Shown here piece after piece: positions 36 to 64,000 of a DNA stretch of 64,000 nucleotides. The notes under the pieces were generated by a model. The model saw nothing but the letters and a program-made list of their open reading frames with translations, searched no databases and had not been told where the DNA came from. The stretch covers positions 5,992,828-6,056,827 of the forward strand of contig CAJINV010000004.1 in assembly GCA_905178155.1 (NCBI GenBank), written 5' to 3'. Made by a program: the position numbers and the translations under genes. The stretch is from Amoebophrya sp. A120. Lineage: Eukaryota; Protista; Dinoflagellata. The stretch's first letter is position 1. Every line of letters begins with the position of its first letter.

Positions 36-3000
36 TCAATACGACCTCTTGAAACTAAGTATGAAACGGAAATCTTCCAAAAGAGGGATTGATTCTAGTA
101 GGTACGCCGCCAGCGTTTTCTCAAAGGCCTGGAAATGTTCGTTGCCCACTGCGAGTTTCGGGAAGCTGGAGGAGACCTTGTCGACCTGCCAGCTGGTGTT
201 TTGTTTCATTTTTGCGATTATGCAATGCAAAAGTATAATTGTATCGTACTAGTATGAATTGCATGACAAATCTTTCATAGAAGAAAAATGAAATTTGTCA
301 TGCAGTTTCAGGTAAGAAAGCAGATCTGTAATGCTAGACTCGCATTAATACGAGTACGATACTTTTTTATTTGCAACGCATAGCGATGTCCACACCGGTT
401 TTGTCCAGCGAAACCGCCAGAGGATCCAGAATCGCTTTCTCCAAGGACTTATCAAGTGCAAATATGTCTGAGTCTGGAAGAATCAAGGCTTGTCATGCTT
501 GTCTGGCATGACCTATGATGCTTGTAATGCATGAGCCAGCATCACAGATTTTTGGAAGGCTTCCTGATGCCATTTCCGCATGACATCAAATGCCCTCCTC
601 GCGTAGCACAAATGTGGCTCCTCTTGATGGTCATGCAATACAGATTTCTTTAGAGTCCAAAGTTAGCATCACAAGTTCCAACTTTCCAGACCCAGACATT
701 TTTGCACTTGATACGACTTCTCGAACGCGGGCAGGCCGTCGAGGTTGCTGGAGATGTCGAACATCTGTTGCCCGCCTGCACCGTTCGCTGCTTGGTTGTT
801 GTGCGAGTTCAAAAGGAGTTCCGCGGCCTGGAACCGGCAGGGGTGGTCCGGCACCTCCAAAATGCGGGTCAAATTCGCACTGATCTGCTGGAGGTTGCGC
901 ATACTCAGGTTCGCTTTCTGCAGGAGCCAGAGCCCGTATTTCGCAAACCGGGGATCGATTAAGAGGGTGGAAACCTAAATTGAAAATCCGATTTGTTTGT
1001 CGACGAACAAGGTCTTTAAGGCTGTGCGTACATCAAAACATCATCGCATACAAAACGCTCACTTCAAAGATAGAGGCCGACAAGTAAGTCAACGAGGCTT
1101 CTAATTCTATTCCCAAGCAATACATACGGATACGCTAACGCTAACGGACGCAAGAACGAAGTGGAAGTTAAATAAAGCATGAAAATGCTGAGGCTCCTCG
1201 CGTCTGTCAAAAATCACTGATTGTATAAATAGTACCCTCCCAAGGCTGGTTTGGTGCGTGCAGAGCGCCGCGGTTAACTTGAGCAAATTTGGGTCGTGGA
1301 GCTGCTCGCCGCCGGTAGTAGTACTCAAACCCGTCGCTTCGGCCCACACCTCTTCCGTCTTCGCCAGCAGTTCGATCGCGCGACTAGCCTCGCAGGCCCC
1401 GGAAATAATTGCGTTGCCCGATAGGATGCAGGCCACAATCTGCGTGTTGCGGTCCGGGGAGCTGAACAGTGCGACGACGAGCCCGAGGCCGGACTCGGAG
1501 AACAGAAACTGCTTCAAGTCGTCCTCCAACGCGAACCAGAAGAGCTTGGCCAGCAGCTCATGCACCACCGCCGGTCTCTGGGGATGGAGCAATTGCAGGA
1601 TGACCTCCCGGGCCTCGATATCCTAACCAAAAACGTCCCCACCGCAGAGTTGTCATGCAGATTTCCATCTACAGAAACATTTGTAATGCGGGTACCCATC
1701 ATGAGAGGTATTTCCATTCGTGTTTTGGAATTTGTAATGCTGGAAACAGGATGAGCAGATGGATTTGTGATGCGTTTGTCCTTACTAACCTGCACTACGC
1801 TACGCACTGCAACCTGTCATGCGTGGCCCCCAAAACGTCTAGATTTGTGTTGCTAAGTGCCCAACTTGACTATGGGGCGGGCACGTTTTTACACAGGATA
1901 CTCGATTAGCGTCGCGGTCATGATCCGGGGAAATTGGTCGCTATGCATTGCAAAAGTATCGCACTAGTATAAATCGCAACACAAATTGGCTCAGCATTAC
2001 AAAGTGAATTTGTAATGCGCATTTGCCCTAAGAAAAAGATTTGTAAATGCATGATCGCAATTAGTACGAGTACGAGGATGCTTTTGCAGTTCATAGTCGC
2101 CACTGTTCAGCAAGATCGCCGACAACAGACCGCGAATAGACCTAGCGAATGCATTGGTTGCGTGCTAGTTGTATCAGCTGTCAATGATCGCTTCACAAAT
2201 TTTTAAAATTCTAATTCTTTATATCAACGGAGAAGCATCAAAACGCAATTTTTCGTCGTGCAGGTGCATGCACTGCTAGTGCTACAGAAACAGCTGGGAA
2301 ATCGGCACTTTGTCATGCTGTATTAAGAACCGATAGTATAAATACGGAAAGTTATCTGGCACGTCCAAGGCCCGGAACAGCCTTTGCAGGAACCCGACCT
2401 TGCCTTGCAACTGCTCCACCACGCTCAATTTGCCCACCTTCACCGCCCCGGTCAGCAACTGCGCGGCCTGCGCCAAGCACTCCGGCGGGTTCCCGTTCAG
2501 AATGTGGTCGGTGCAGATCTGCAGCACCTCGGGGTGGGCCAGCCGGTACACTTCCGTGGCGTACTTTTCGTCGACACACAGCTTCGGTAAGGTTTTGAAC
2601 AGGTTGCTGCGGACAAAGTCCGGCCCGAAGACGAAGCGCGAAACGGACAGGCCGGCGTTTTCGAACTCGAGGAATTTCCAGATGTGCAGCTGCTTTTCCA
2701 GTCGGATCACCTCGCTGTTCAGACAGTACTGGAGAAAAATGCTCAGCTTCGCTTTTCGGTCTTCTACAACCACCGGGTCGGTGCTGTCCATCCCTTTCTG
2801 CGGTAAGACGGGCAGGTTTAGGTCCAGGGGCGTGAGCGCCGCGTGCAGGGTGAAGAAGTCGTTGAACCTGAAATCATGCAAATGCATCTGCAGTTTCTTG
2901 TTGTACAACAGTGTGGATTAAAAACAGAACCAACAGCCTTGAGATGAACGGGTCTAGCGGAAATTTTTCATGGCCATGGGTGTTGTCGCGGAGCACTTAA

Positions 3001-4259
3001 TACCCACACGATTGGTGTTCTTCAGTGCGACCAAATGATCTTCCATTTCCTTACCTGTGGTTCACAATGCGGTCCCGGCCGAAGTCGTGCACCTCTATCA
3101 CGTAGTCTGTGTATTCCTGCAGTAGAAAACTAAGTTTCGTTTCTGTCCGGTTGATCTTCACGTACACTGGGCGACTGGTATCTACCACGACCTCGGGTGG
3201 CTTTGCGTCCGGTAACGCGTTGTAGAGGGTGGTATTACCCGCGTTTATCTGCGAAGGGTCCTCGAACTGCAGTGTGCTGGAGAGCGCGTTTTGCATCAAA
3301 TTCGAAGCGGTGGACGAGAGCACACCCGTTGCCGCTCCAAGAGTGGATGCAGCAGAACTTGTTCCATATGCAATACAAATTTCCCGTACATGTACAAGAT
3401 GCATCACAAATTTCACCAATTTGCATTTGGAGCGTAAAACTTGTCATGCTACACTAGGATCAAAGCCAAGTTTTGTCATGCGGAGACCACATTTGTACCT
3501 GTACGGGAAATTTACTGTGGATATTCCACTTGCAAGTACACTAGCACCCGTAGCTGCAGCCCCCGACCCAGGAAGTAGACCACCTGCTCCTCCAGAGGAA
3601 CTCATCGAGGAAGATCCACCTGCTGCTGATCCTCTGTGCATCTGCTCGCTGGCACTCTGCAGCACCTGGCTAGCCCCCGCGGCTAAGAACTTCGTTGCGC
3701 CCCCCACCAGTGTGCCCGTCAGCGCGCCCGCCTTTTCGGCCATCGCGAGCGCGGCAGTGCGGTTCTGGTGCGGCCCGGCACCCGCGGCGGACCCAGGGAT
3801 TTGGCCACTGTTTGATATTGCAGCTCCTGGCATAGTCATAGGCATTCCACCAACTCCCGCAGAAGTTGTCATGCTGAACTGCCCGGTGGGTTGCAACGGT
3901 GGCGTCGCAGATGATGCTGGAAAAGAGGACAAACCACCACCCGCAGCAGATCCGAAAAAGCTAGTTGTACTGGAGCTGGGTCCTCCTGCTCCTGTCGGAG
4001 TTGGATTCGGATTTGACGCCGGCGCTCCGGCAAGCAAAGGATTAGTTGCACCGGAGGGCTGTTGCCCGGCCATGAGCGGGTTGTGCGACGTCATCAAGGG
4101 GTTGCTCGGAGGGGAGGACAAGGAACTACCTCCAGGTGGAATCCCGCCTCCGGTCAGCGGGTTATTTGAAACAGAAGCAAGCGGCGGCGCATGTTGCGGT
4201 TGTGTGCCAAGCTGGCTAACCGGCACCAAGGAAGGAATTCCGATGTCATCCAGGTCCAT
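36..4259 (-). CDS. PX (phox homology) domain protein with Gly/Ser/Pro-rich N-terminus; multi-exon
   Basis: Spliced PX motif: VYVKINRTE..EYTDYVIEV..NHR|FNDFFTLHAAL..LPVLPQK..EDRKAKLSIFLQ. GT-AG introns at 2868-3054 and 975-1235 plus 5 introners; joins such as AFEKS|LEKAILD..VDIA|KMKQ are in frame. 3' end uncertain. Confidence 0.75.
219..382. mobile_element. Introner, family A
   Basis: TATGCAATGCAA..TTGCAACGCATA; DR gcgat/gcgat; frame restored on removal. Confidence 0.9.
450..713. mobile_element. Introner, family B
   Basis: TATCAAGTGCA..GTCTGGAAG / TTCCAGACCCAGAC..TGCACTTGATA; DR ggact/cgact; frame restored. Confidence 0.9.
975..1235 (-). other. Conventional GT-AG intron
   Basis: Minus strand agg|GTACT...TTTTCAATTTAG|gtt joins LGR to VSTLLIDPRF in frame. 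Confidence 0.7.
1619..1900. mobile_element. Introner, family F
   Basis: TATCCTAACCAAAAACGTCCCCA..GCACGTTTTTACACAGGATA; DR ctcga/ctcga. Confidence 0.85.
1942..2095. mobile_element. Introner, family A
   Basis: TATGCATTGCAAAAG..CTTTTGCAGTTCATA; DR gtcgc/gtcgc. Confidence 0.9.
2868..3054 (-). other. Conventional GT-AG intron in PX domain
   Basis: cacag|GTAAGG...TTTCAG|gttcaac reconstitutes NHRFNDF. Confidence 0.8.
3367..3523. mobile_element. Introner, family E
   Basis: TATGCAATACAAATTTCCCG..CGGGAAATTTACTGTGGATA; DR ttcca/ttcca; joins ASG|TSSAA. Confidence 0.9.
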
Positions 4260-5042: not shown

Positions 5043-6748
5043 CTAGTCCTTCTTCAGTTCGAATTTTGGTTGCTGTACGACCCCGCTTTTGTCAATCGTG
5101 AAAATGTCGCAAGCATCGCCCGTGTAAATGTCGCGTTCGCCAGTCGAAGTCATCACGTCGCGGCCTGAACGAGAGAAAATTTTGGAAAAAATTAAAATTT
5201 ATATTTTTCACTTACGTGGTACTTGGGGACGAGAGGTCTTGTTTCAGGTGCAAGTGAAACTACAGCGTAGTTGTGTGTACGGGATAATCCAGACCTACTG
5301 GACTTTCAGGTGTATCTATAAGCATGGCTAGGTGGATATTGATTTCATCAAAATCCAGCACGGACGAACAATGTTGCATTGATGCAGAATCAGAAAAGCG
5401 TAGTTGTAAATCGCAAAGCGGCGTAGAAGTCGTAGTACAGAGGTCCAGCACTTCTGCGAGCTTGAGTGGCGCTTTCCTCTTCTTGTCCTCGGTGTAATTT
5501 CCCTGCTGTATGACGGCGTCGATTACTGGGTGGGCGAGTGAGCTTCCACTACCCGACGTCGTGTAGCTGGCGTGAAGAAATGATTGAAGCGGTTAAAGCG
5601 AAATACGCAATACAAATTTTCCGTAGTTGTACAACACGTACTGTACAAAATGCATGACAAATTATTCAAGCAAGTAGTTATACTCGACGCGCTCGAAGCT
5701 CCCAATGGCATCGTAGTGGTAGCACGCTCCCTTTCCCTCGCCGTCGGTTCCGGCGAGAATATTGAAGGTGTAGTAGGGAAAAAACCGCTTTCCGTAAAGC
5801 ACCGTGGAAAGCATCTGGGCGATTGCTGTGGTGGATGGCTCCTTCCGATGCTCGTGCTGGTACCTAATAGGAAAAAGACGCGCAAATTTTGGTTTTCCTT
5901 TCGCATTATTTTCTCTTCGATGGATTCGGACGGGTGGTTTTTCTGAACAGAGGACCACGCCTCCAATATGTAGATGAAATCATGCAGAGCAAAATTCATG
6001 CAATTCTGCCGAATAGCAATAGAGACACCGAAATAAACATCAAATCATCGCCCGACTTGGACTTACATTGTAATTCTGATTTTCAGCATTCGGTGCAACG
6101 TGATCGCATCTGCTTTCATTCCACAGCTCGTAATCACGCACTTCGATGTCAGTTGGGTCGTCTGTATTTTTTTTTGTTTTCGATGAAAGAAAGTTATGTT
6201 GAGAGGTGGGTCATTGTTGAGGTGATAATTGCATTCGAAACTGAAACTACACGAAGTTGTTCCACCATTTTTTGAGTACATCGTGGTCTCCTCCTCCTCG
6301 CAACATGCAACGACAACATGAGAAAATTTTGTTGAAGAAACCTTGGTATTATTTCTCGTGTGTATCGAGTATCCCTTGGAAAGTCGCTTATCGGAAATGA
6401 TGACGGCACCGTATCAAATGCAAAAGCGTCTGGGTCTGGAAGCATGTAACTTGTAATGCTAGTCCTCCACTCCTGTGAAATCTGTACTGCATGACTAAGA
6501 AAAAAAAGACGCCCTCTTTGGTCAAGCAAAAGCGCAGTTTCTCATGCGGACTGAGCAAGAGAGAGCGTTCTGAAAACTTGTCATGCTTGGTTGCATTGGC
6601 AAATATTTGAGTCATCCAGAGTTCTGCATCACAAGTTTCCAGACCCAGACATTTTTGCAGTTGATACACCGTCTTCGCACGCAATGCCAACTGCCGTCCC
6701 ACCATTGTCAGTGTATGGCGAAAACCGGTGCTCGATGGGTTGCGCCAT
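5043..6748 (-). CDS. PSMB1: Proteasome subunit beta type-1 (beta6/PRE7); multi-exon
   Basis: [86 protein letters not shown] follows the beta6 family throughout. Confidence 0.95.
6412..6666. mobile_element. Introner, family B, in proteasome gene
   Basis: TATCAAATGC..GCAGTTGATA; DR caccg/caccg; removal gives CEDG|AVIISDKR. Confidence 0.92.
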
Positions 6749-8322: not shown

Positions 8323-11300
8323 CTACACCTCCACTACCTCATCCTCTCCGCTGAAAAGGGACGGCGAGGTGGAAGTACTATGTTCCGCAGTTCTACTACT
8401 CAAGCGGTCCAACTGCGATCTCCGTAGCAGGTCATTGGTCGTCGTTCCCTCCTCAGGCATCACTTCGTCGATAATATGCTCCTCGACCTCGAACTCGTAG
8501 CCCACCGCGGGAGGGACGGAAAAATTATCCTCCAAGTCGTCATCGTAGTGTCCCTGGTCGTCGCGGTCCGGAACTTCACTAAATGAAGATCCAGGACGAG
8601 GACTCGTCACAACATCCACATCGTCAACCTCAACATCTTCCGCATGATCATGAAGGTGTTGATTGCTGTTCCTCCTGTTGTTCATCGTAGCCGCCGGACC
8701 AGGACTACTTCTTCTATCATATGGCACGGAATTTTTCATCATGTAATAAGACGTGCCACCATGATCGTGTGCAGCATGTTCACTCGGATCTCCGAGTAGC
8801 AGCAAGCGGTGCATCTCTTCCTCGGCTTTTTCATCCCCATACGAGCGGAAGAATTCCCAACGGGACCTGCTCGCCTCGTCGGCTTGGTCCAGCAGTTTTT
8901 TCCGCCGCCCATACTCGGCTTCGTAGAAGTTCTGTTCTGGCTTGCGGTCTTGTTCTTCACGACTGGCGTTCTGGTTCTTGTGTCGTCCAACTGTTGTCGT
9001 CCCGTCAGCTTCGCCCCTGTCGTGGTCCTTTTCCTGCTTCTTATTTTCCTTCCTCGTGTGCGCTTCGATTTTTCCTCGAAACAGAGTCACGATGTGGGGC
9101 ATATGGAAGCGTCAGGTTTGAAATCGTCAAAGTTGAAGTAATCTGTAATGCATAAAATGCATGACCCGAGGTACGTGTGTTGCAGAGCAGGCAAGTGAGG
9201 CCGATTGTAAGCCTGTTTGGGGTTACAGCTCGAGCTGCTAAAGTAGCATGAGAAAATGACTCTTCTTTGCCTAAACAGCATGACAAACTGGATTTAGGGA
9301 CCACCGAGATTTGTCATGCGCCACTTGGAAACTGGGTTCCAACTGGCATCCATTTTATGCATGACAAATTATTTCAACTTTGTCGATTTCAACTCTGACA
9401 CATCCATAGGGCAACCAGCGCTCGTACACGTGTTTCGCGCCGAGGTGCAGCATATCAAATGCAAACATGTCTGGGTCTGGAAGAGTCATGCTGCTTTTGC
9501 ATGACACAGAAGGTCTGGGTCTGGGTCATGGAAGCTCTAGCGTCACAGGTTTCGAGAGGCTTCCGCAATGCCGAAACCGCGTGAGAAATGCGCCACTTTG
9601 GTGACAGAAACTAGTGGCAGTGGGCAGCTTTTGCCGCCTATGCATGAAAGATTTTTCTGTGTTGTGAAATGCGCAGCACAAGTTTGCATTCTTCCAGACC
9701 CAGACATATTTGCAATGTATACAGCACCGACCACCGCTCGCGCTGGTTTTGTCCCGCGGCGCTCTGGGCGCGCTGCAGTTTCGCCTTCGTGGCAGCGTCG
9801 TGGAGGTGGCGTGTGGATGCAGTGGCTTTGCCTGTGTCCTCTTTTCCGAGAAGTTATTACAGTGAAAAATGCCCCCACCCCCAAAGTTGCAATAATTTGT
9901 GATGCGAAGTCTCCAAATAAAAACTTTTATTTTGTCATGCGTGAAAGGAATATGAATCTTTGTGATGCAGAGTCTGGGCGTATATAGCATTGCTTGCATG
10001 ACAAGCGCCGATTTTGCTGGGATCTTTTGCAATACAAATTGTCGCTATTGTTCATCACGATTGGAAATCTGTGATGCTGCTAGATGCAAGAGGGCGAATG
10101 TTTCTCTTGGAAAGGTTTGCAATACAAATGCTCCCAAGTTCGGCGGTGGGGGCATTTTTCATTGTAATAGAAGTAGCTTTTTGTCTTCGCGGGAGAGCAC
10201 CCAGTCCTCTTCCTCGGGGGTCAGCGTCTTCCATGTGGAAAGAAAGTCGATAACGTCGTCCGGGCTGTCGGCCGCTGCTACGTCCACCGCCAGGGCGGCA
10301 GGGAAGTGCAGTGCGCGTTCGATCAGATGCACTAACCGCTGCTCGATGACGCGGCTGGGCAGCCCGTCGAGCGAGAATAACAGCGACGAGGCCGTCGAAC
10401 TGTGGCCAACATCTGCTTCGCTCTCGTCGCCGTAGTTGGGGGCCGAAGGGCCCGCGTTATTTCTGTAGTTTTTGTTCTTCCACAAGTTCTTTCGTAGAAA
10501 GGGTTTATTCCTGCTAGGACGATGAATTTCTTTCAGCTCTGCTTCCGCAAGCCCCCAGGTTATGTCATCGTCGGTAACCATCGGGGAGAGCCGGTGCCAG
10601 GTCCCAGAGCGCACCCGCTTCAGCGTCGCCAGCTCCTCCTGGCGCCGCTCCCACAGGCCCGTCGTCACGTGCTCCCACTGAAACGCGTTGGCTGCGGACT
10701 GCACGTAACGCAGGTAGGCCCCGAGCGGCGTGTAGTCGTGCAAAGCCACCACCGAATTGCGCAGCAGGGACAGAAGGGATATCGCCGCGAAGTCCTTGCC
10801 CGTTACGTGCGAGATGGAAGAGGAGAGCTTTGCGTATATTTCAAGTGGTCGTTTTTTATTCGTCCCGAACGTGCTCTCCTCTTGCTTCAGCAAAAAATCC
10901 AGCCGGTCATGCATCACCTTTACGTAGGCACCGATCACGGAGTGCGGGCCGGCGTCCGCGAAGTTGTGGTGCAGAAAGTTCGACAGCTCCAGTGTTTTCT
11001 TCTTCGCGGCAGCTTTGCGAGCTTCGGCTCTTGCTCTTCTTGCAGCAGCAGCATCAGCTCGGTTATCCACTACAGTAAATTTCCCGCACTTGTTGATGTA
11101 CAAAAAGCATCACAAATTTTGCCAACTTAGTAGAGCATGCCACTTGTCACGCTATCTAGGATGGAAGGCAAGCTTTGTCATGCAGAGACCGCATTTGTAT
11201 GTCTATGTCGTGTGCGGAAAATTTACTGTGGATATCTGTTCCTCCTCTTGTACTCGGTAGCGTTCCTGTTCAGCAAAATCGCTTTTGTGGATATCCTCTC

Positions 11301-14300
11301 TTCTTGCAAAAATGCTGCGTTCTTTATGCTCTTCATTTCCTCGTGCTGATGATCTTCCACATCGTTCTCGTTTTTTTTGTTCTTCTTCTTCTTGCTTCTC
11401 GCAACAATCCTGTATCGCTGTCCGTCGTCGCCAACAAACGAGGTATGGGTGTGTCAGGATCGAAATCGTCAAAGTTGAAATAATTTGCCATGCATAAAAT
11501 GGACGCCAGTTGCCACTCAGTTTCCAAATGGCGCATGACAAATTTCGGTGGTCCCTAAATCCCGTTTGTCATGCTGTTTAGGCAAAGAAGAATGGTTTTC
11601 TACATGCTACTTTAGCAGCTCGAGCTGTGAACCCAAATAGGCTTACAATCGGCCTCACTTGCCTGCTCTGCAACACACGTACCGCGGGTCATGCATTTTA
11701 TGCATTTGCAAATTATTATTATTTCAACTTTGACGATTTCAAACCTGACGCTTCCATACGAGGGCTCCTCCTCGTAGTGCTTCACTCCACCATACGCAAT
11801 GCGAAACCACGCCACCCACATCAACGCCAGTGCGACATTGTGCTTGGTGGCCCGCTATGCAATGCAAATATATCTGGGTCTGGAAGGTTGGAACTTGAAC
11901 TTGTAATGCTAGCTTTCCATACCTAGGAAATCTGTATTGTATAACCTACAACAGTCGCTGCAGCCTCTTTTGTACAATGAAAGCACGCAGTTTCTGATGC
12001 GGATTGCCTATGAGAAAGCGATCTGGAAAGTTGTCATGCTAGGTTGCATTCGGAACTGTTTCCATCATCCACATTTTAGCATCACAAGTTTCCAGACCCA
12101 GACGTATTTGCATTTGTGATACCCGCAAGATGCTGTACTTTGTCTCCACACACCCGTCGTCGCTGTGCGCCAGCGCTATGCTGTGCAAAAGTACTCGTAT
12201 TGCAATCATGTATTACAAATATCTTTCTTGAGCTAAATCCGCATCACAAATTTCATTTCTCATGCTGAGTAACTTTGTAATGCATTTCTACGAGTACGAG
12301 TACGATACTTTTGCAATGCATAAGCGCGGTGTGGTCCCGAAACGGGGCGGCCCGGCTGCAGTCCGGGACGTGAATCTGGGTGTAGGACTCCTTCCCAGCG
12401 ACGTCCAGAGTCTGAAGTGAGTGGCCCGCTCGCGCATCCATCTCCTCGGCCCGTCGTCCCGCCGCGGAGAGCTGCTGTGTTGAAGACAGATCGCGGCGGT
12501 AATTCAGGTCGAAAGGGTTCATGTGCCTTTTCATCAGAAACGAGGGGTACCTCGACGAGAATTTTCTATTGTGATGTTGCACGTCCGCTACTTTTTTCCG
12601 CACAACATACCGCACCAGGTGGTCCAACAAGTGTGCGCACCAGGGGGGCACGTGGCCGAGCGACGCTTCGTAGGGGGCCTTGCGCCACAGCAGGTGCGGA
12701 AAGTGCTCGCAGCCCAGCTTCCGTTCGATCACCCAGGAGGGAAAGCCCCGCCAGTGCGTGGCGGGGTTATGGAAGCGTCAGGTTTGAAATCGTCAAAGTT
12801 GAAATACTTTGTAATGCATAAAATGCGACACAAGAAGTGACTCTATTGCATAGGACCCACGGGAGGCAGATTATAGTCCTGTCAAGGGTCAAAAGTTGGA
12901 CTGCTAACTAGCATGACAGAAGGCAGCTCTTTTACCCTAAACCGCATGACAGACTCGCTTCCAGGACCGGGAAAATTTGTCATGCACCGACTACAAACTG
13001 TAGGTCTAACTGGTATCCGTTTTATGCATGGCAAATTATTTCAACTTTGTCGATTTCAACTCTGACACATCCATAGGGGTCCCCTTCGCGGTAAACCTGC
13101 AGCACATCGCCCTTTTTCACGTAGAGTTTGTGGCAGACTTCCCGCTGCCGGGTCGCGGCCTTCGTCCCAAGTACCTGGCGCAGGACCTTCGCGGAGGTGG
13201 AGGCACCGTCAAACAAGTAGAAGGGGTCGTGCCGGTATCCACAGAAAAAAAACCAATGCAAGCCACATCCATTTTTTGCATGGCAAACACATGACTTGAT
13301 ACGTGTTTTGCATGACAAATTGGATGTGGATGGGTTTTTTTCTGTGGATAGCCGGTTCCGGTACTCCTCTGCACCAACGGCCGCCTTCTCCGCTTCGCTG
13401 GCAAGCCAGGTGGCCTTTCTTCGGACCAAACGCCAACCGCCCTGGAAGGCGTGTTGCGTGGCTGCCCAGGACTTGTGAAGCCAATCCTCGTCTTGGTCTT
13501 TATTGTTCCCCCCGCCGGCGCCCTCCTCGGTGTTGTTCTTTCTGTCCCGCTCGGCCTTTTCCCTGCGCGCGATGCGGTCTATGCGGTGCGCGATGGCGAT
13601 GTATTTGGCCAGTTGGTGGCAGTGCTCTACCAGGTGCACCCCCTCCTGCCAGTCGCGGTATTCCAGGCTCCATCGCCCCACGACCTCGGGCCGCAGCATG
13701 GGTTCAATCATGGTCACCCAGACCTCGCGCGCCCACACCTCGGTCACACCCAAGTAGGCCAGGGTGAATTGGACCGAGCCACCGGTCCCGTCGGGAGACA
13801 GCCCCGCCTCGGGGTTCCGCACGGTGGGCAAAACGACCGTGGCGACCGCCCCCGTCCCGCTGTTTTGCGCAGCCTGCAACGACTGTGCGAGCGCGACGAG
13901 CCCGCTCGGCACTCGCTCAATCTTATTCCGCTTCTTCGCGTCGTAAGAAGCTTCTTCTTGGGAGGACTTCTGGTCCTCGGACTTGTAGTAGCGGTCGTGG
14001 TCGTGCAGGCGGCCGAAAACAGGTTGTTTTTCCAAGGGCAGGTCGTAGTCCTCCTCTTCGTCTAGCCGGAAGTCGTCGTTTTCTTTCCCGGCCGCAACCA
14101 GGCCCGGTTTGCCGCGGTCCAGGCCGTTGGTCGCGAGCCGTCCCTATCAAATGTAAAAATGTCTGGGTCTGGAAGAATGCAACTTGTCATGCTGAATCTG
14201 GAGCATGCAAAAATCTGTGTTGCATGATTACCAAAAGATGTCCACTTTTGACCAGTTCGACAGGGAGTTTCTCATGCAGGATAGGCACGATAGACACCTC

Positions 14301-51469: not shown

Positions 51470-53700
51470 ACTTCTTCATCGCACGACACTGTTTTTCAAC
51501 AATGACGGTTCGTGTATCAACGAGAGCGTGGATTATTTTCTGCGCCAGCGCAGGAGGAGACAGTGCAACAACTCCTACTCGAGCAGCGTTCTACTCCGTT
51601 ATGATATGTCTCAAAGCCAGTACCACGGCAATATCTTGACCCAATTCCAGGGGTACAAATACTCGTAGTAGTCGGCTTGCTATCCAAGAAAAAAAGAGTG
51701 TATAGTGTAACTCTGACTGCTTTCGTTTTGATTTTGGTTTTGGAGGAACAGCATTACAAAGCTGTCCGGCATGACAGCAAAGAATCTTGTATCATGCGCA
51801 AGTAGCACGTCCGAGAAAAGCACTTCAATGCTTGGTATCTTCTCATCATGGGGCCTGCCAGTCATGCATGACCAGCATGACAGAGCCAGCCGCTTTATTG
51901 GTTTTGCATCTTGCACATCTTGACAAGGTTACACTAAACAATCTTTTCTTCTTGCATATCTGCCGCTCCTTCTCCGCGGAAGAGGCACAGTTATCTTCGT
52001 ATAACCTGCTCAGGTGCTGCAATCTCAAACGATAGCAACAAATTCCTGACTTTCTATTGCATCATCAGTATCATGAGAAACACACAGAGCAGCGTCCTTC
52101 CCCTTGCCCTTCCGCTTTTTGCAATGCAAATTTTGCCGCACCATTCTCATGCGGTTTGGGACAACTCCAGCTCTAGATCCAGACGAAATTGTCATGTGCA
52201 TTCATTCCTGTGAGAGCAGGCCAGATCACAACTGTGCACTTCTTGCATCACAAACACAAATCGAAATCTGCGTTTCTATTTTGATATACAGGTGAGATTA
52301 CAAACCTGGGCGGGCCATATTTCGCTCGAACTTTTCAAGTACTGAACGCGCTGCGGATACTTCTTTTCCAGCCACTTCAGGTGCAGCCAGTGCTGGCTTT
52401 CCGGCGTCTATCCATTTTTGCAGAAGTATCTATCGTGCCCGTACGGTAGTAATCACGACCAGGACAAAAATTATGCATGACGACTACAAATGCAAATCGA
52501 CCTAACGTTAAGTGCGTCAGCATATACAAATTCCAATTTCCCTGCGAGGAAAGTTTGCAATACTACTTACTAGAACGATACTTTTGCAATGCATAGTGTC
52601 GCACTGCGGTCGATTTGCACCGAGCCGCCGCCCTGGCTGACCATCTCCCGGATGGTTACACCGCACATGCACTGCCAGTCGTCTCGGAGCCCAACATATG
52701 CATTGCAAATAGATTCTTTTACTTCGTCAGTGAGCATATAATCTGATTTTTCTCGGTGAGTGCAGATGTTTCTAGTGTAGTTTTCCATGCAGATTTTCCA
52801 TGCCCCACGAAAGCTGGAATCCGGCAGGAGCGTCAGCATCACAGATTCACCTGGACGGTCTTTGTAATCCCGAATTATCTGCACGAGAAATCAATCTCTT
52901 GTTCTACTCAGCAGGTCCAAAATAACGGACCGCTGCTTTTGCTCCTGCTCCGCTACTGCAAGTACAAAATAGTGATAGGAGATGTTTCTGTTTGCGTGAT
53001 CATCCGCGGAAAGCATCTTCACGAGCTTGTAAATGAATGTCGTGGACATCGACCTATTTGCAGTGGATACAAAACCGTCGGTGCACTTGCCCTTGTACAG
53101 CTTCGCTTCTTGCTTGAGAAACGCGCTGTTCGGCTTTGCGCAGATCGCCCGCTTGCACAGGTCGCCGCTATCCGAGTGCACAACGCGGCCTCCTCACCTT
53201 CATTTGTCCTCTTCACACAGAATGTCAATGTTGAGAATACCAAATCCACATCTTAATCTTTTCTTTGGGTTTAAGCACCAGTGTCTGCATGACAACTTTC
53301 GGAACAACCTCAAACAATAACTACGGTCCGTGTGCAAGAGCACGCGCAGCTGCGGAACAAGATAGATTTAGAACTTCATGCGAATATTAAACGCAACAGC
53401 GTTGATCTTGATTTGCGACCTTGCTTCTTTCCGTTGCTGCTCGTGCCTTTCAAACGATGGGGTTGGGGTCGTGAGAAGCAGCTGTGTGCACTCTGATAGT
53501 CGTCAGATTCGGTGCAGAATCCATCGCCGAGAAAGGAGCCGTTGCTCGCTGTGCCCGTTCCGCACTTTTGCAATGCGTCGCCCAGGACGGAAAGCGGTTT
53601 CATTTTTGATACGGGGCCCGGGGTGTCGTCCTCGTGAAGATACGGTGGCTGAGTGGCGCAGCTTTCTTCACGGTCCACACGTCGACGCGCTGGCTTTCAC
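51470..53700 (-). CDS. Hypothetical multi-exon gene with decayed introners; boundaries uncertain
   Basis: Short Cys-containing minus-strand exon-like ORFs alternate with motif-bearing TAT..ATA inserts. Confidence 0.35.
51681..51958. mobile_element. Diverged introner, family K
   Basis: TATCCAAGAAAAAAAGA..TCTTTTCTTCTTGCATA; DR cttgc/tctgc; GCATNACA motifs. Confidence 0.65.
52409..52595. mobile_element. Diverged family A introner
   Basis: Right TIR GATACTTTTGCAATGCATA; DR gcgtc/gtgtc. Confidence 0.75.
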
Positions 53701-54161: not shown

Positions 54162-57100
54162 TTACCGCGGATCACCCCCCGGGGCACGCTGTCGCTGTGC
54201 CGGACGAATTCTCACTCCGTAATTATTTTTGCTTTCGATCTTCACGACGCTAGCGAAGGTCTCGTTTCTAGCACTCGTCGGGGTAGTTGTACTTGATGTT
54301 CTAGTACGCTCGTCCTGGTGCGTGATGTTGATGTCTTCATCTACCGGTAAATCATTATCATCTGCATCTCGACCTCCTCCACGTGCTCCTGGGTCGACGA
54401 GCGACGTGAAGAGACTCTCGACGAGAAGCAGGCTGTTTTCTAGAAGTTCCGGAGGTCTTGAAGTCATCATCGCGAAAAATTCCTCCATCCCGTCTGCCAG
54501 CTTGGCTGCGTCCACCAGGACGTCACGCCGGATCCAGTGATTTAGCTCCGTCCCGAGCGACGCCTCCTTTTCCTTCTCCGTCCTCGGGTTGCCGAGAAGG
54601 CACAAGTGCGGCACGTCGAATACCAGGCCCATCCCGCCGTAGGCATACATCGGCGTGTTGTTCCAGCCCTTGCGGCACAGTTCCGTAGCCAGCTGCGCCA
54701 TAAACGGCATCAGTTCGATGACCCCCTTGGAGAACGGCAACCAGGAGAGCGCCTGTCCGTGCGGACCGATCAGCAGGCTGTTCTGAACGATTCGGTGCTG
54801 CATCCGGATCGAGAAAAGGCTCAGGTCCACCGCGAAAAATTCTATCGTTGGGGAAGCAGAAACAGCATCTTCCTCTGCTCGTCCGTCCGCAGAGGACCAC
54901 GATGGTGGATCCCTTGTTTCTTCATCCCGTCTCGACGTTGAAGTGGTCCCAGAATTATACGAGAAGCGAAGACACACGGCTTTCAGCACTGCCGCCAAAT
55001 TCTCGACGCGGCGCGAATCACCGAACCGCAGCGCGAAGACGACGCGCAAGACGCGACTTGGAGCCGCGCCTCCACCGGTGTTCTTGAAAGAGGTTCTTGC
55101 TGTACTTCTACTAGCATCTCGTGCTGTTGTACAACTATACAAAAAAAAAGACCCCATCCATTTTTTGCATGACACACAACGGATTTTAGCTTTAGGCATG
55201 TTTTGCCGCATGAAAATTTGCAAGGGGAAGATGGGTCTTTTTTTGTGGATATGTTGTTCCACTCGTAGTCGAGAGAACCCCGCCTCTCATCTTTACAGTC
55301 ATGACCACGCCGCCGACCAGATGATTCAGCGAGCACGGGAAAGGCGAAGTAGCTTCTTCTTCTTCACCTCCACTGGCACCGGCGATGACTTGTTCCTGCA
55401 GGGTGCTACGTGTCGTGCTCCCGTCCTCCGAGGCGGCGGGGGCTGTGGTTCTAATACCTCCGGGTGGTCGTGCTGTGCTGAGAGGTGCCACCACATCTCT
55501 GTCGAGCTGGTTGGCCTGGTCTCGCAACCGCTCCTCGTCCATTATTTCCTCCGAGAAAGGTCCTGATCCACCAGAACGCCAGGCTGCGTTGACTTGGTTC
55601 ACAAAGGCCGACTTGATACCGCGCCATGTGCTATCCAAATGAGGAAAAACAGGACCTACCCACGAGATGAACGCCATACCTGTATATGCAAATCCGGTTC
55701 CGGATGCCCGGAATTATCAAATGATGTGTCTCATGCGCAGGAGCCGCATGTTGAGAAGATGCATTGATGCGGTTTTGCTCTACACCTATAGAAATTTGTC
55801 ATGCTCGAGCAATCAGAATGAGAAAGTGGGCTAGCGCTAGTCCTAATCCGGCTATAATATACCTCAATAAACGAGACTAAATCCACAAAAAATCGCACTG
55901 TCTTGCAGATCGCTCAAATCTTCGTGATTTACCATCTGTATCTTAAGGATGGCGAGCGCGCAGTGGGCAATTCTTCGGGTAGGAACGTTCAATTATTTGC
56001 AGAGGATATGAGCCCTTATCGCGGCCGAACAGGGTGACGTGCTCCACACCCCATTGCGAGCCAGCGGCGTAGCACTGAGTAGAGGGCCATGAGGGAGAAA
56101 AGGCGTCGGATTCCGCGTTGCTGGATGACGACGACGCCGACGACGACGCCGCCGCCTCCGCGGGTGTCCTGAGCCAGACTATTGAAAGGAAAAACTCCCC
56201 CTCCCCATATTGAGCAGGTATGTTTCCGAAAATTTGCGTTGCTGAATTGAGGTCACAAATCGCATTTGTCTTGCAAGAAGGCAAGTCCACAGGTTCCGCC
56301 GCATTTTGCAGGCGGTTCGTCATGCTGTTGGGCCTACAGCACAGACACTTTTCATGCTAAACGCCTTGGCCAAAGCCTCTCTACTCAAACTTGATATGGG
56401 CGCGGAGTCCTCTCCAGCAAGACAAATCTGATTTTTGTACACAAATCCAGCATCAGAAATTCCGTTTTGATATGGGGACGGGGGATTTTCCTTTTGATAC
56501 AGACCAGTTCTGTCCTTCTACGTGTTCTTCCAGCAGGACGAGCTTGCTCCAGCAAAACCGGAAGAAACGCCTGCATCAACGGGGCGGAAGGGTTACACGG
56601 CCGCTCGACGGTCCTCGCAGCATCACCAGGCCCCCCGGCTAAGCTGCTGGTTAAGCAATCCAGCACGAGAAAGTCAAAGTGGCCCTGTCGGAGCTCCACT
56701 GCGAGGGGTGCCAGCAGGTGCACGGCGTGCCACATGTTCTCCGTCGCGGGTTGCGTCACACGCACCAGCAGGGCTCGGCGGTGGTCGGTCTTCATCTGCG
56801 AAAACGTCCTCGAGGAGCGGGGGCCTGAGCCAGAGGACAGAAGTACTTCTGCATTTTCTATTTCATCTCGCGCAAAACCAGGAAGAACCCTCTGATCGCC
56901 CGTGACCTGCCTCGCATTCACTCGACGGTACTCGCCGTAGCTGTCGGCGCAGTGCGCGAGCCACATTGGGTAGGACGATGAGGTTGTTGATGATTGCGGT
57001 TGTTCACCATGTTGATCTTGTCCAGTTGTAGTTGTACTAATACGCAGGTCCTGCTCTGCGGAAAAATACTTTTGATTTTGAAAATTCAGTGTGATTTCGC

Positions 57101-58864
57101 CCGTGCTTTCATCCACACAAACCTCGGGCAAGGAGCGCACCACGCACTCGGAACGTGCAAAGCTTTTCCGCCGCGCAGGAAGGTGCGTCCAGGCCTTTCC
57201 GCCACTCTGTATGGCTCGCCGAAATTCCGCGACGCCCGGGCCCTGCACGCCCGTAAACGGGGTGTGGTCGAAACAGTCGCCGGAGGTCTGCAAAAGCCTG
57301 GCGACTTGACGCTGCAACGATAGCCTCCCCTGGCGGTGGTGCTCGTCCTGGTCGTCCGACGGGGTTGAGGATGGCGGGTTGAGCGCGTTGGCGTTTCCAT
57401 TTTCTATGCATTGCAAACATGTCAATAGTTGGGTCTGGAAATCTTGTGTGTTGCAGTGCCGGCACGTCATCAATTGAAGAGAAATATTAACAACGGCTTG
57501 GGCTTGTGCAACGGCATGACATCAACAGCATCAGAAGTTTTTTGTTTCCTCAGCTTCTACTTTCGGGTTCATTCGTAAATAGCAAGAAAAAATACCTGCT
57601 TCCAGCAGCGCGGCAGAGAAACTCGACACTCGTACCGAGTTTTCCATGGATACTCGACACACACTCAATTTCAAACCCTCCAGACACTACATTTGCAATG
57701 CATATTCTCGCGCAGTACTTCATCATCATGATTCTCTCCGCCGACAGCGAGGACGCACGCAGTTTTCTGCAACACCTCGAAGACTTCGCACGTGGTCATG
57801 GTCGGCGCCTTTTTTGCAGCAGGACCCTGCGCAAAACTGCGCTCTTCGTCAATCGCTTCCCGTAAAAACTCGCCGCACTGGATATCACAATGAAAAGTGC
57901 CCCGCTCATGGTCATGATGACAGTTAGAATAAGTGTGTCTGATCCAAGAAAGTCACTTCCGAAGGGAACGAAGGCTTTGCTCTTCCTTGTATGAGAAGAC
58001 CACTATGAGTTTGTCTGATCATCTGCATCTTCCAGCAGAGTCTGGCTAGGGTTCTTGCATAGGCATAGCGTCTTATCATGCTATTGCATGAAAAGGGCGT
58101 TAGTTTTCAATTATATCATACTGGAAGAACTCATAGGCAGCAGCCCGGGACTGGTCACTTGGCGGCACCGGAGTAGTACCATCACTCGTAGTTCCTCCTC
58201 CCGACTTTCGGAAGAAAGAATCGAAAGCATTGGTGAAGAAGCTGATGGTCTCGGGCATGTCGCGACAGGCACAGTGTGTGTGTGCAGAAATAGAAATCGT
58301 CGAGAGCGTCGCCCTCGGCGCCTGGTGGTCCTGTGGAGGTTCTCCATGACCCCCTCGTCCTCCCGGTCGCAGGTCGGTTTCTTGGCTTTGCTCGAGGAGG
58401 AGCTCGTAGCGGTTCCTGCGTCCCGCAAAAATCTCCCGGTGGAAGTAGTCGTAACCATGACGGTGGATATCATCGTCATCCTGGAGTAGAGCAGATCCGT
58501 CGTGGGCCTCTCCTTCGCTATCCAAGTGGAAAACAGTGGTCGACGTCGTGTTCTCTGCGTCGTGGTCTTCATCTGTAACTGTATGTTCATCGTCGACCCT
58601 CCTTATAATCTCCTTCTGGTCGTAGTTGTAGTACTCGTAAGTATTGTATCGCACCCCGCCCTCGCGCAGCATGTACTCAGTCATGTTTTGGTGTTGCGGC
58701 AAGAGCCACGCTCCGAGGATCCGGCTCATGCGCTCCACTTTGCGAAACATCCACGGGGACGACGAGGTAGTTGCCAGGAGAGTATCTCCACCGCCCTGGG
58801 CCGCGGGAGGATGAACCGCTGCGGCTGTCGCGGCCCCTTCTGCGAAGAACAACATCTTGATCAT
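54162..58864 (-). CDS. Glycosyltransferase family 61 (DUF563)-like protein; multi-exon
   Basis: ENMWHAVH and SIRMQHRIVQNSLLIGPHGQALSWLPF..VIELMP resemble the GT61 N..H and G.HGA.L..VIEL.P motifs. Confidence 0.65.
55136..55251. mobile_element. Introner, family H (DR diverged)
   Basis: TATACAAAAAAAAAGACCC..GGGTCTTTTTTTGTGGATA; element+5 removal is in frame. Confidence 0.8.
56180..56499. mobile_element. Introner, family G (opposite orientation to 37198)
   Basis: CCCCCTCCCCATAT TIR; DR cagac/cagac. Confidence 0.88.
57405..57704. mobile_element. Diverged family B-like introner
   Basis: TATGCATTGCAAA / TTTGCAATGCATA; DR ttttc/ttctc. Confidence 0.75.
57883..58120. mobile_element. Diverged family D-like introner
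   Basis: TATCACAATGAAAAGTGCCC..TTTTCAATTATATCATA; DR ctgga/ctgga. Confidence 0.72.
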
Positions 58865-59553: not shown

Positions 59554-61289
59554 TTATCGCCCCCAGTCGTACCGACGATACCGCGTGATCACATCCAGCA
59601 GCCACGGTGGACAATCTGGATGGTTTGCCCAAAATTCGTTGAAAAAGTGAATTCTTCCGTGGTCAATACCCGGAATGACGCGCGACGTCGCCTTGATTGT
59701 ATTAAGATTCTGCCCTCCTGGAAGAGTTTTTCCTCCTGGTGGAAGTGGCACGGCCTTCTCTTGCAATTCGGCAATTAGCTCCAACACCGTGCGCCAGTTC
59801 TGGATCCGTATTTGCTGTTCCTCCGGTAAGTCGCCCGCGGCGTTCTGAATCAGTGGGTGTTCCCCGCAAAGTATCCTGGCTGTCTCTTCTGTCACGCGGG
59901 TCGGGGCACCGGGTTCCGCATTCCCCTCTTTGTCGGTCGGCCAAATATCGTGTGCAAAAGTATTATCGCGGTCGTGGCTACGAAGTTGCCCGAGCCCGTG
60001 CGTGGTCGTAGTAAAAGGAAAAGAAAACTAATTGCTTTTGCTGCCATGTATAACAAATCTCCTCGCTGACCTGATTCTGCATGGCAAATTCCATTTTTAG
60101 TAATCATCATGCAATACAGTACAACTACTACTCGTGCGATACTCCTGATTTTGCAATTTGCATACCACGCCCACCAGGCCCAGTGTGAGCGTTTCGCGCC
60201 GTGCTCCTGTAGCTCGGCGAGAATGCGTGGCAGGTGCTGGAACTGACGCTGCACCAGCTGCTGAACCTGAAAAAAATAAAATTAATATGTTGAACATGTC
60301 CTAGCACAAAATTAAGAACCCATCGTGAGTACTAAGTAAGAATAAGAAAATGTATTGTAGTATCATATGAACAAAAAGAGAGCCCTAAAAGCACTGCGCA
60401 TGTCGACGTCGAGCTGTTTGTTCTTTGTGCTGCAGATAAAACACGTGGATCGTTGTAGCCAATTCTCAACACAAAAAAAAACTACCGCCTCGAGGTCGTC
60501 TGGCGGAATCTTCTTGTTGTCGCGACTTTGGTTGTTATTTGTCGTGCCCATCTGGCGCGTGCCGTTTTTCACAGCACCAAGCGACGATGTTGAAGGCTCA
60601 ACAGACCGCGGGGAAGGGGATTGCGCGCCGCTCGCTCCTGTTGCCGGTCCTCGTCGTGGGGGCTCCCGACGAGTATGGTCGTGTGCTGATGGTGCCAACG
60701 CGGCCGCTACCGCAGACGAGGAACCGGAGGCTGACGACAGGGGACTATTGCTCATCTGATTTTGTACGGGCGCATCATTTTTAGGGCTTGTTTGATATGC
60801 ATCAACAACCGGGGCAGACAACTCAGAACAAGTCGTCGTAGTCGTACAGATGATACTGGTCGTCCTTACAAAGCTGGGCCCTCGCTTCAAACAGCAGGCT
60901 AGCGAATTTTTCAACAGTGGAGGCTTTATTTGCGCCGCCGGAAGATCGTCAGCGACCACCATGAAGGTGGAAGACGATGCCCTCAGCACTCCGCTAGCTG
61001 CTCTCCTCATTAAGAACGGCCTCATTTTATTTATCGCTCGGAGAGTTCGTTTTCGCACCGGTCGTGCTTTTTTACTATTCATTTTCTTTTTCACGGATGA
61101 AGTTTTATTTTGAATACGGGGAAAATAACGCCTACAATGCCGTCTTTTGCGCAGGAAAAAAAATAGCTTCCGTGTAGTGTAATATCCGGTCGAGTTCATC
61201 TTGGAGCCGCAGGTCGCTCCAGAAACCTTCTTTTTATGCGCCGGCTTTCGCTTACGCTTTGTTTTCTTCACCATCACTTTGGCGGCCAT
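59554..61289 (-). CDS. DUF1810 (Rv1873-like) domain protein; N-terminal exon assignment uncertain
   Basis: ILAELQEHGAKRSHWAWWAW|PT resembles the EL..G.K.SHWMW..FP motif. Confidence 0.55.
59946..60164. mobile_element. Diverged family A introner
   Basis: TATCGTGTGCAAAAGTA..TTTTGCAATTTGCATA; DR ccaaa/ccacg; frame restored. Confidence 0.78.
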
Positions 61290-62000: not shown

Positions 62001-63000
62001 TTATTTTCCCGCTTGCTGCTGCTGCTCCTGCTGCTCTCGTTGACTGCGTTTTCTGACGTGTTTTGCGCCTGGTTGGTACACCTTCAGCTCCGGCGCGGCG
62101 CCAGTGGGGGAAACTTGAAACGGCGGCATCTTTTCCAGGGTGTATTTTTTCACGTACGCGCGGAACTCATCCTTGTCAACGTAACCGGAGTCGTCGGTGT
62201 CAAACGCCTTCCAAACCATCTCCCATTCGTCTGTTTGTTTGATGTGTTGTATGAATGGAAAAAAAAAAAAATTTAATTGCAGTTGGATAAGTACTAAGAA
62301 ATGAACGCGCATGAGCAACAGGACAAAGCCCCAACGCAGGTTTCATGCGTGACGAGAAGCGCGTCCTACCCCTGATGCACGATGCGGCTTTTCGGAGTAA
62401 CAATAAGACTAAAAGCAACATCGCCTCACGAACTACTGCTGCATCAGTTGTTGCAGCGAGAACAGACGGAAGCGAACATAGAAGTGCTGTTGAATTTTTA
62501 CCAAGCGTCTCAGCCTTTTTTTTTCCAAATTCAGGCTGTAGAAAGAAGTTTGGTGGCGTAGTACTAATACCTGTGTTCATGTATTCCTTGTGTCCGAGGA
62601 AGGCACGGATCTCGCGGAGCACGATTACCATCTCGTCGCGGTCCAGTTCGCCAGACAAGTCGTCGTTATGGATGGCAAATATGTCTAGGTCTGGAAGATT
62701 GGAACTTGTGATGCTGTCTCTGGATTGTAGAAAAATCTGTGCTGCATGACCAGCAAGAGGAGTCCAGTTTGTGCTACGCGGGGAGGGCATTTGTCATGCG
62801 AGATAGCCATTAGGAAGCCCTGTCAATATCTGTGATGCTAGCTCATGCATTACCGGCATCATGGGTCATGCAAAATATGCATGACAAACCTTGCGTTCTT
62901 CCAGACCCAGATACTTGCAGTGGATAGTCGTCAAACCGCTGCCATATCTCGTCGATTTCCTCGTCTGTGTACTTCTTCAGGTCGTACTGGTGCTGTTATC
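62001..63000 (-). CDS. EF-hand calcium-binding protein; 5' end approximate
   Basis: EF loops FD|DDLSGELDRDE (formed across an introner) and FDTDDSGYVDKDE. Confidence 0.8.
62667..62926. mobile_element. Introner, family B, inside an EF-hand loop
   Basis: Family B TIR; DR gtcgt/gtcgt. Confidence 0.9.
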
Positions 63001-63289
63001 GGTGTATTGTGAATTCTTGAAGATGATTAATAATTCAAAGTACTTGGTTTGCATTCGACGAGATACATACTCTGGCTCTTCTATTCGAAGAGGCAGAGGA
63101 GGTGGGAGGGAGAAGTGCTTTTATATCCTACTCATTTAAATGATCACCTCATCACTTCTCCGCGCAAAAGCGGCAAGGAAGCCGAGGGACGACCACGGAA
63201 AAAAATTATCATTAATATTGCAGCTTGTGTTAAAAATCGTGCTATCGCATTCGCAACTTCTGTTACCGTCTCTGTCAAACAGATAACTA

Positions 63290-64000
63290 TCATACCCAAA
63301 ACTGCTCGAGCGGGAGTTCCCTGGACCTTTCGCGCAAGTACTCCTGGGACGACATTTCCGTGAGCCTGGAAACCGTCCGGTCCCACGCGAAGATTTCGTC
63401 CTGAATCGCCGTCTTTTTATCGATCGACGGATCCACGGTGAAAATCTCGTGCGCTTTCTTCTCCTATGGATTCCAAATTTCTCAATCTGGGTCTGCGTCT
63501 AGAGAGCTGAGACGTGTGTTCGTGTTGCTGACTTTACCTGAACCTGCATATATTTGGCAGGGTGGCCTCTGGTCTGGTATGGCAACATACCAGCATGACA
63601 AGTTTTCCTCAAGCTCTCGTCGTGCATTGGAATTCATGCGTATTTAGCATGACAAAGCTCCATGCAGCACGACAAAAAAGCTCGCCACTCCACCTGCACC
63701 TCTCCGTGCATCACAGATTTTGTCGCTGGTCCTCTCTTTCAGATACAAATCTGGCGTTACACACTGAGACCCAGACACAAGAAGATTTGCGTTCGATATC
63801 TCCGAGAGGAGGACAAATTTTGTCCTTTGTTCGTACAAGTTGTCGATCAATGTGATGAACCTCCTCACTTGGCTATCCTGAGGAAAAACGTCCCCACCAG
63901 ATTAGTCAAGTTGGGATCTCTGCAACACAAATCGAGAAGTTTTGGGAGTCACGCACACGAATGACAAGCAGGAGCTTCTCGCTGTTTATTTGTAGTGCCG
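63290..64000 (-). CDS. AFG1: AFG1/ZapE (LACE1)-like ATPase, 3' part; continues beyond window
   Basis: RRFITLIDNLYEQRTKFVLLSE|KKAHEIF..DEIFAWDRTVSRLTEMSSQEYL matches the AFG1 C-terminus. Confidence 0.85.
63465..63798. mobile_element. Diverged family B-like introner
   Basis: TAT..TCTGGGTCT / AGACCCAGA..ATA; DR tctcc/tctcc; frame restored. Confidence 0.82.
63874..64000. mobile_element. Family F introner, truncated by window end
   Basis: TATCCTGAGGAAAAACGTCCCCACC left end. Confidence 0.7.

Follow-up and report, generated by a model that had tools for sequence, protein, structure and literature searches.

Introners of the dinoflagellate Amoebophrya sp. A120, as presented in the available part of Farhat et al. 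(2021, PMC7789003), have an inverted repeat (IR) that starts with TAT followed by 7 variable nt and at least 3 A, are flanked by a direct repeat (DR) of 3–5 nt and contain no transposase, in a genome in which more than 60% of the introns are non-canonical. Their splice positions relative to the hairpin were called variable and the border unknown (Fig. 3; 1–5 nt in Fig. S23), and the splicing mechanism was stated to be open. Here we analyse 64,000 nt of A120 DNA (GenBank assembly GCA_905178155.1, contig CAJINV010000004.1, positions 5,992,828–6,056,827 of the forward strand; this whole stretch is the window), in which 49 complete elements of this type were found and, in contrast to the published variability, a single register of removal is likely, the intron starting one base before TAT and ending four bases after ATA. 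Five public proteins named Amoebophrya sp. A120 (here P0001, P0004, P0005, P0006 and P0007) match window exons letter for letter, and the elements share with the introners of A120 and A25 the IR, the DR, the repeated families and the non-canonical borders. Since the A120 proteins match the exons and Farhat et al. described A120 introners, this is a rediscovery in the organism of first description of a system already published in 2021; an earlier note on the window, made from its letters alone, had likewise recognised Amoebophrya introners, and by their sequence the elements are the published ones. Beyond the text of PMC7789003, whose available part contains none of the words 'lariat', 'strand' or 'subterminal', the register, the independence of removal from the DR, the 5′/3′ polarity and an internal motif appear to be new, and the figures of that report may show part of this. 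A literature search, with most subscription journals outside its reach, returned no paper that settles the splice register of Amoebophrya or reports the motif. A single register, an N-U-A donor and a ruler-set acceptor make the published open question testable, and the register rule would permit correct annotation of these genomes.

Among other described systems, the class 12 introner-like elements (ILE) of Polarella glacialis likewise make a 5-nt target duplication, and in their NNAGG form the donor consists of the last duplication base and the first element base, the geometry seen here (10.1101/2020.10.14.339549, available part). Whereas these elements require NNAGG, which provides the canonical G and AG, A120 targets are unconstrained and in the window only the element at 22757–23800 is canonical; the NAGGH/NNAGG target does not describe A120 elements, for which the −1/+4 register gives GT-AG at 6 of 292 perfect DRs in the sample of loci described below. 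The introners of Fritillaria borealis (10.1101/2025.08.15.670264, available part) likewise derive from transposons with terminal inverted repeats (TIRs), are mostly non-GT-AG and are removed by the U2 spliceosome. Their splice sites are the IR ends, and the species has a conserved U1 and a duplicated U2AF, whereas in A120 the cuts fall within the target duplication, U1 was not detected and the available part of PMC7789003 lists a single U2AF65 and a single U2AF35. Non-conventional introns of Euglena, for which an origin from miniature transposable elements with inverted repeats (MITEs) has been proposed, likewise carry short paired motifs at fixed spacing from free ends (PMC12501133, available part); their signature is N3-CDG / CH'G-N5-6|R with pairing required, whereas the A120 elements do not fit it and show a polar N1-TAT / ATA-N4 arrangement with weak terminal pairing. 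Introns of the tRNA type (bulge-helix-bulge) or the IRE1 type are marked by a stem between exon and intron or by paired stem-loops at the two cuts.

Element architecture, families and internal motif

A scan of the 64-kb window for a 5-bp DR plus TIRs, free in the terminal bases (free scan), gave 45 matches, 25 of which begin with TAT, while five shuffles gave 4–8 matches each and none beginning with TAT. Relaxed scans, BLAST and reading by eye led to a curated set of 47 elements, with five overlapping or chance pairs discarded; the decayed elements 55136–55251 and 29482–29684 make 49, in agreement with the approximately 49 TAT..ATA inserts with TIRs and 5-bp DRs counted in the earlier note, and two incomplete elements, one with an assembly gap inside (17009–17314) and one running into the window end (63874 onward), bring the total to 51. 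Eight clustered families have members in the window, and at least 8 more elements are singletons. The trinucleotide TAT was a selection criterion for the 47, in 38–43 of which IR positions 11–13 are A, fitting the published TAT + 7 nt + at least 3 A pattern, and TAT also predominates in the free scan.

A second-assembly sample was obtained by a pattern scan of metagenome contigs, which gave at least 149 stretches; 146 loci (L001–L146) among the matches listed were analysed, and locus counts throughout refer to these. Nearly all of them belong to one contig series, the exceptions L083 and L126 coming from other record series with the same TIR pattern and being pooled with the rest. The loci share the window families at 70–93% identity and provided 400 distinct elements, and none of the 146 is orthologous to a window gene; two TIR patterns gave no matches in viral contigs. 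With the DR length left free, 24 of 36 window elements and 281 of the 400 locus elements proved to have a repeat of exactly 5 bp, and no other length between 2 and 9 accounts for more than 4 of the window elements; an exact 4-bp DR was found in no window element and in one locus element. Both orientations occur in 13 of the 14 families having at least five copies, and the elements have the TIRs, fixed target duplication, short length and multiple copies of MITEs. In one family the two orientations are uneven in number (13 vs 23).

Pfam searches of 150 + 150 long open reading frames (ORFs) of the window identified PX, proteasome, aldo-keto reductase, EF-hand and AFG1 pieces, all on the minus strand, confirming that the elements interrupt conserved genes, as had been proposed; Rfam gave no matches in the window. 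Element length plus 5, modulo 3, is 0, 1 and 2 in 13, 18 and 16 of the 47 elements, and an element kept in place would shift the frame in 34. Sliding within the DR gives GT-AG in two of the 47 (14775–14919 and 22757–23800; about 1.8 expected by hand estimate), which is the chance level, and GC-AG in two, GA-AG in one and AT-AC in one. The earlier note had named the same two GT-AG cases; that count stands, but 22757 is a different kind of element, with longer repeats and no internal motif. The borders are therefore non-canonical, as in published A120 introners, and lack the GT or GC start and AG end of U2-type introns.

Within 10.3 kb of element sequence the motif TGT[CAG]ATGC (TGTVATGC) was counted 97 times; the 53 kb outside have 16 occurrences, most of them in elements identified later, and the motif has no strand bias relative to the transcript (76 vs 80). 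Of 446 elements, 277 contain a same-orientation pair spaced 30–33 nt, often 31 nt, where 49 would be expected, and in 12 of 17 families half the members or more have such a pair; copies are non-independent in these counts, and families may share modules by descent. Because this spacing corresponds to three helical turns, TGTVATGC is likely bound by a DNA-binding protein such as a transposase. MITEs with subterminal transposase-binding repeats are exemplified by En/Spm and Ac/Ds; the A120 elements are like MITEs in their TIRs, fixed-length target duplication and short internal motif in both orientations, and differ in that no cognate transposase was seen for them. Two long TAT..ATA elements, L006 505–1608 (which apparently holds a nested insertion) and L026 6184–6998, encode no transposase family, and a 4208-bp pair in L045 was rejected as a single element, being two separate elements with a chance shared repeat. 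An A120 family (family 38) with integrase-like ORFs between its TIRs has been described (PMC12130899, available part), to which no link of the present families was established.

Removal from gene models in a single register

At all 28 junctions covered by P0001, P0004, P0005, P0006 and P0007, the gene model lacks the element and exactly 5 nt, which bears out the proposal that each element is removed with one repeat copy and speaks against retention of the inserts in transcripts; A120 gene models were derived from assembled transcripts (PMC7789003, available part). The element at 13236–13350, which is in frame and stop-free, is likewise missing from its gene model, and a single gene model lacks members of the same family in either orientation (9102–9408 and 11444–11758, 90% identical). 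Removal as element + 5 persists at 15813–15983 (DR 1/5) and at 55136–55251 (DR 0/5), and because of this the DR is, on gene-model evidence, a scar of insertion that is dispensable for excision.

A hairpin with a direct repeat is the classic setting for template switching by reverse transcriptase, and the junctions come from gene models; such artefacts, or pseudogene loci, are nevertheless a scarcely credible source of the pattern. Removal at decayed DRs argues against template switching, retained elements would disrupt the frame in the 34 cases given above, and removal of element + 5 restores open frames of 1775 aa (15 elements, all of which must go), ~1815 aa (6 elements) and 1161 aa (5 elements), equalled by random frame choices in 1, 79 and 51 of 2000 trials, respectively. 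Frame length with permutation was used here in place of a simple junction metric, which was blind to removal length (30–36 of 47 for all). Orthologues from A25, AT5 and a Logan contig have no indel at the junctions inspected in alignable regions. The proteasome beta-6 junction (element 6412–6666) is contiguous on chain 1iru_M, with residues 1–19 followed by 22–46 and two residues between, and the frame is preserved at the junctions in the AFG1-like ATPase gene (63465–63798) and in the EF-hand loop (62667–62926), which Pfam on short exon fragments left without exact placement.

P0001 uses the canonical GT-AG introns at 975–1235, in the PX-domain gene, and at 2868–3054, both of which the earlier note had called. 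That the ordinary spliceosome removes the elements through nearby GT/GC-AG sites has hardly any probability: a frame-preserving GT-AG pair lies within 12 nt in 14 of 49 elements, or 25 of 49 with GC donors, but controls gave 16 and 28 of 49, and the gene models permit only element + 5 offsets, with GT-AG at 1 of 28 junctions (14775, in another register).

A perfect DR lets the cut slide, while an imperfect one fixes it. Twenty of the 28 junctions permit all six registers and eight are informative. Relative to TAT, the 5′ cut must lie at −1 for 15813 (from P0004), at −1 or 0 for 53169–53498 and 55136, from −5 to −1 for 51681–51958 and 52000–52319, from −3 to 0 for 52697–53069, from −2 to +1 for 55632–56008 and from −4 to +1 for 14444–14553. 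The sole register common to the eight is −1/+4, which is allowed at all 28; by hand estimate, the chance of random cuts all agreeing with −1 is 0.0036, or about 0.02 for agreement on any register. A codon model applied to 118 oriented imperfect DRs from the loci scored the six registers at 0, 0.4, 1.0, 4.6, 15.2 and −1.6, and its peak is the register of the gene models (sign-flip p = 0.008 a priori). Stop-codon exclusion of registers gave no result, with 3 events only. The −1/+4 register also predicts the published motif lists, in which the predominant motifs are NT-NN in 9 of 9 cases for A120 and TT-NN in 9 of 9 for A25 (Table S4 of PMC7789003, available part). In eight of the nine A120 motifs the last two letters are, in addition, AN, an ending not reproduced in the targets (A at the matching position in 78 of 292 perfect DRs) and one for which we have no explanation. 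Among the same 292 DRs the phase of the 5′ cut is distributed as 118, 87 and 87, and the bases at DR position 5 do not match the complement of those at position 1 (p = 0.004), an effect that coding-strand composition may produce.

Terminal polarity and the agent of removal

Family profiles recovered 520 full-length copies whatever their ends, of which 418 were oriented and have a DR of at least 4/5; strands were assigned by the codon model, with earlier strand calls concordant in 125 of 130 neighbour pairs. In these 418, TAT positions 1, 2 and 3 are changed in 0, 2 and 14 copies on the 5′ arm, compared with 8, 7 and 4 on the 3′ arm (Fisher p = 3e-4; 0.0015 for perfect DRs alone). The polarity follows the transcript strand with either family arm acting as 5′, and no general strand bias of substitutions was seen (A to G 35.9, T to C 37.9 per 1000). 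With 0 and 2 changes, compared with 8 and 7 for the mirror arm, the intron's +2 U and +3 A are held in these copies; +4 is free (T in 404 of 418), and the constraint is looser on the terminal TA of the 3′ arm. The invariant +2 U and preferred +3 purine of U2-type introns are thus present, and the three canonical donors of P0001 begin GTA. An A at intron −7 is changed in 4 of 418 copies compared with 14 for the mirror position.

These strand-dependent patterns bear on excision of the elements as DNA in a life stage, after the manner of the internal eliminated sequences (IESs) of ciliates, of which the TA termini and inverted repeats are reminiscent. The host is an alveolate and the 31-nt motif spacing resembles a DNA feature, but register and terminal constraint track the transcript strand whichever family arm lies upstream, and 5 extra bases are lost even where no repeat is left, making this highly unlikely.

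The evidence favours removal by the spliceosome, with relaxed G(+1) and AG rules, over a separate structure-guided pathway, and we give this reading a probability of roughly 0.55. A transposase acting in trans would insert non-autonomous copies in either orientation and duplicate 5 bp, with the TGTVATGC repeat as its likely DNA binding site; element + 5 nt would then be removed in both orientations, even with a decayed DR, as seen at gene-model level. The supported form of the intron is N-TAT..ATA-NNNN, whose 5′ end therefore would read N-U-A, like canonical G-U-A with a free first base. The element's own ends would determine both cuts, the 5′ cut being read by sequence (+2 U, +3 A) and the 3′ cut lying a constant distance beyond the element end, with the long-range hairpin as an aid and the A at −7 as a speculative branch candidate. 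Under this reading the polarity is explained, as are the identical geometry in the canonical Polarella class 12 elements and the failure to detect U1 in A25 and A120 (PMC7789003, available part) when a relative with canonical introns has it (PMC12005148, available part). In A120, U2, U4, U5 and U6 are present together with almost the full set of spliceosomal proteins, PRP8 being listed once (PMC7789003, available part), and Fritillaria offers a precedent, its TIR-derived non-canonical introns being removed by the spliceosome (10.1101/2025.08.15.670264, available part). If the spliceosome is responsible, its catalytic core can drop both terminal G contacts genome-wide, which would explain a near cost-free transposon invasion of exons.

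The earlier note had preferred a dedicated structure-guided pathway running in parallel with the ordinary spliceosome. Such a machine, either a hairpin- or motif-guided endonuclease with a ligase or a circle-forming pathway like that of Euglena, would make its cuts one base ahead of the stem and four bases beyond it, and we consider it possible, though not the best reading. Removal in both orientations, the unconstrained last four intron bases and the long stems (folding z −7.9 for 6412 and −4.3 for 55136) fit it, as does the argument that Euglena non-conventional introns use distinct factors (PMC12501133, available part). However, the terminal constraint is polar on +2 U and +3 A rather than symmetric (an asymmetric nuclease could still yield polarity), stem positions 4–7 are paired in only 105–162 of 250 oriented copies (42–65%), and in the same copies G-U pairs on the sense strand are not in excess over A-C mismatches (249 vs 232). 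In addition, 15813 fixes the register despite a weak fold (z −1.8), and the distribution of U1 is left unexplained. Sense and antisense fold energies gave a null result (sense lower in 30 of 45 and 133 of 250). Pairing may bring the ends together and is apparently not the sole determinant.

Several results weigh against the relaxed-spliceosome reading. There is no preference for G at +1 (92 of 292 perfect DRs), AG at the intron end is not enriched (23 vs 25.9 expected), decayed DRs show no drift to G or AG, and we know of no spliceosome for which positions −1 and −2 are wholly free. The polarity depends on 32 variant copies, and the window copies were taken as minus while the codon model called 3 of 47 plus. 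The codon-model register test is modest, with p = 0.048 for the best of six registers, p = 0.027 a priori and 0.125 as best of six for the 91 one-mismatch DRs, and registers 4 and 5 almost tied at plus-strand loci. The family scans yielded no strand-specific branch column, with no column of this kind other than the A at −7 surviving multiple testing, and the 3′ U-run is not more conserved than the 5′ A-run. At one stem position of the largest family U-G exceeds C-A (21 vs 4 of 53, a post hoc comparison), a hint of a role for pairing that would suit a separate machine. Pfam found no transposase families in 44 long-element ORFs and 300 window ORFs, and the junction evidence consists of gene models or codon statistics throughout.

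The 1044-bp TIR element at 22757–23800 is the only bona fide element without TGTVATGC, and this one case is GT-AG in the shared register, compared with 6 of 292 others, a point that also suits a separate machine guided by the motif. A bolder reading, of low probability, is that A120 has a U1-less splicing mode that ignores the first G and terminal AG, in which a TGTVATGC-bound protein would mark any copy as an intron, the 5′ cut would be read as N-U-A and the 3′ cut would be measured to four bases beyond the end of the element, and motif-less elements such as 22757 would survive in exons only at canonical targets. If this is true, a portable licence for splicing would come with the transposon itself. 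Of the 400 locus elements, 8 are motif-less hairpins; these mostly have no DR and hence provide no test of the hint from 22757.

Individual elements and neighbouring features

All introners and GT-AG introns of the window given here lie on the minus strand. In the ~150-bp family, elements at 219–382 (removed with 5 nt in P0001), 1942–2095 and 12177–12322 (both in gene models) have 5/5 DRs and were found in the free scan, as were 17898–18064, 21050–21200, 38275–38424 and 39254–39409, which also entered the frame test; 16776–16913 (DR 5/5) and 35890–36047 (DR 3/5) entered the frame test, 14775 belongs to the same family, and 30470–30654 (DR 5/5) is similar to it. The ~262-bp family comprises 450–713 (DR 4/5, removed with 5 nt in P0001), the proteasome element 6412, 9453–9721, 14145–14406, 14975–15239 and 24113–24374 (DR 5/5 and free scan in each case, the middle three in gene models and the last in the frame test), 11856–12121 (DR 5/5, gene model) and the EF-hand element 62667 (DR 5/5). 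Elements at 9102 and 12768–13075 in the ~308-bp family have 5/5 DRs and were found by the free scan and in gene models, and 11444, inverted relative to 9102, has a 5/5 DR and a gene model. The ~310-bp family includes 9855–10169 (gene model), 34646–34954 and 37925–38235 (frame test), all with 5/5 DRs and in the free scan, and the free-scan element 18110–20634, which is split by a 2.2-kb nested insertion at 18184–20392. This insertion, which spans an assembly gap, has its own inverted ends starting with G and an imperfect ~9-bp flanking repeat, and gave no Pfam match; from these features we take it to be Mutator-like.

The ~282-bp family is represented by 1619–1900 (DR 5/5, free scan, gene model), with 30090–30387 (DR 4/5) resembling it and the start of a further member at 63874–64000, and the ~157-bp family by 3367–3523 (DR 5/5, free scan, gene model) and 11064–11234 (DR 4/5, gene model), with 15813 being similar to 3367. 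Elements 13236, 14444 (DR 4/5) and 55136 belong to the ~115-bp family, and 37198–37523 (DR 5/5, frame test) and the inverted 56180–56499 (gene model) to the ~324-bp family. The remaining register-informative elements have DRs of 3/5 (51681 and 53169) or 4/5 (52000, 52697 and 55632). DRs of 4/5 also flank 17009, 17394–17663 (frame test) and 57405–57704, and the AFG1 element 63465 has a 5/5 DR. Aged introners are found at 29482–29684 in the aldo-keto reductase gene (5′ end TAC, DR 2/5), 45353–45540 (DR 3/5, frame test), 52409–52595 (DR 4/5) and 59946–60164 (DR 3/5).

Two GT-AG introns, at 2142–2345 (gene model) and, by eye, at ~5566–5682, begin G-TAT; the first has two motif matches, and the second, an apparently canonical proteasome-gene intron, contains a relic of the end of the 3367 family at 5604–5682 (limits by eye). 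Both may be aged introners turned canonical. The 22757 element, also found in the free scan, is flanked by two copies of a 45-bp exon stretch (22707–23845), and its removal leaves a 15-residue tandem duplication. In the region 8326–27203 the frames of 1775 and ~1815 aa join at the gapped element 17009 and may form one very large gene, of which P0004 spans just the last 1478 aa. The public annotation divides the region 54165–57952 between P0006 and P0007, but a single gene is suggested by the AT5 orthologue P0008 and by the open frame. The stretch 48950–51250 contains two tandem repeat arrays that are GC-rich and in which both strands have long open frames.

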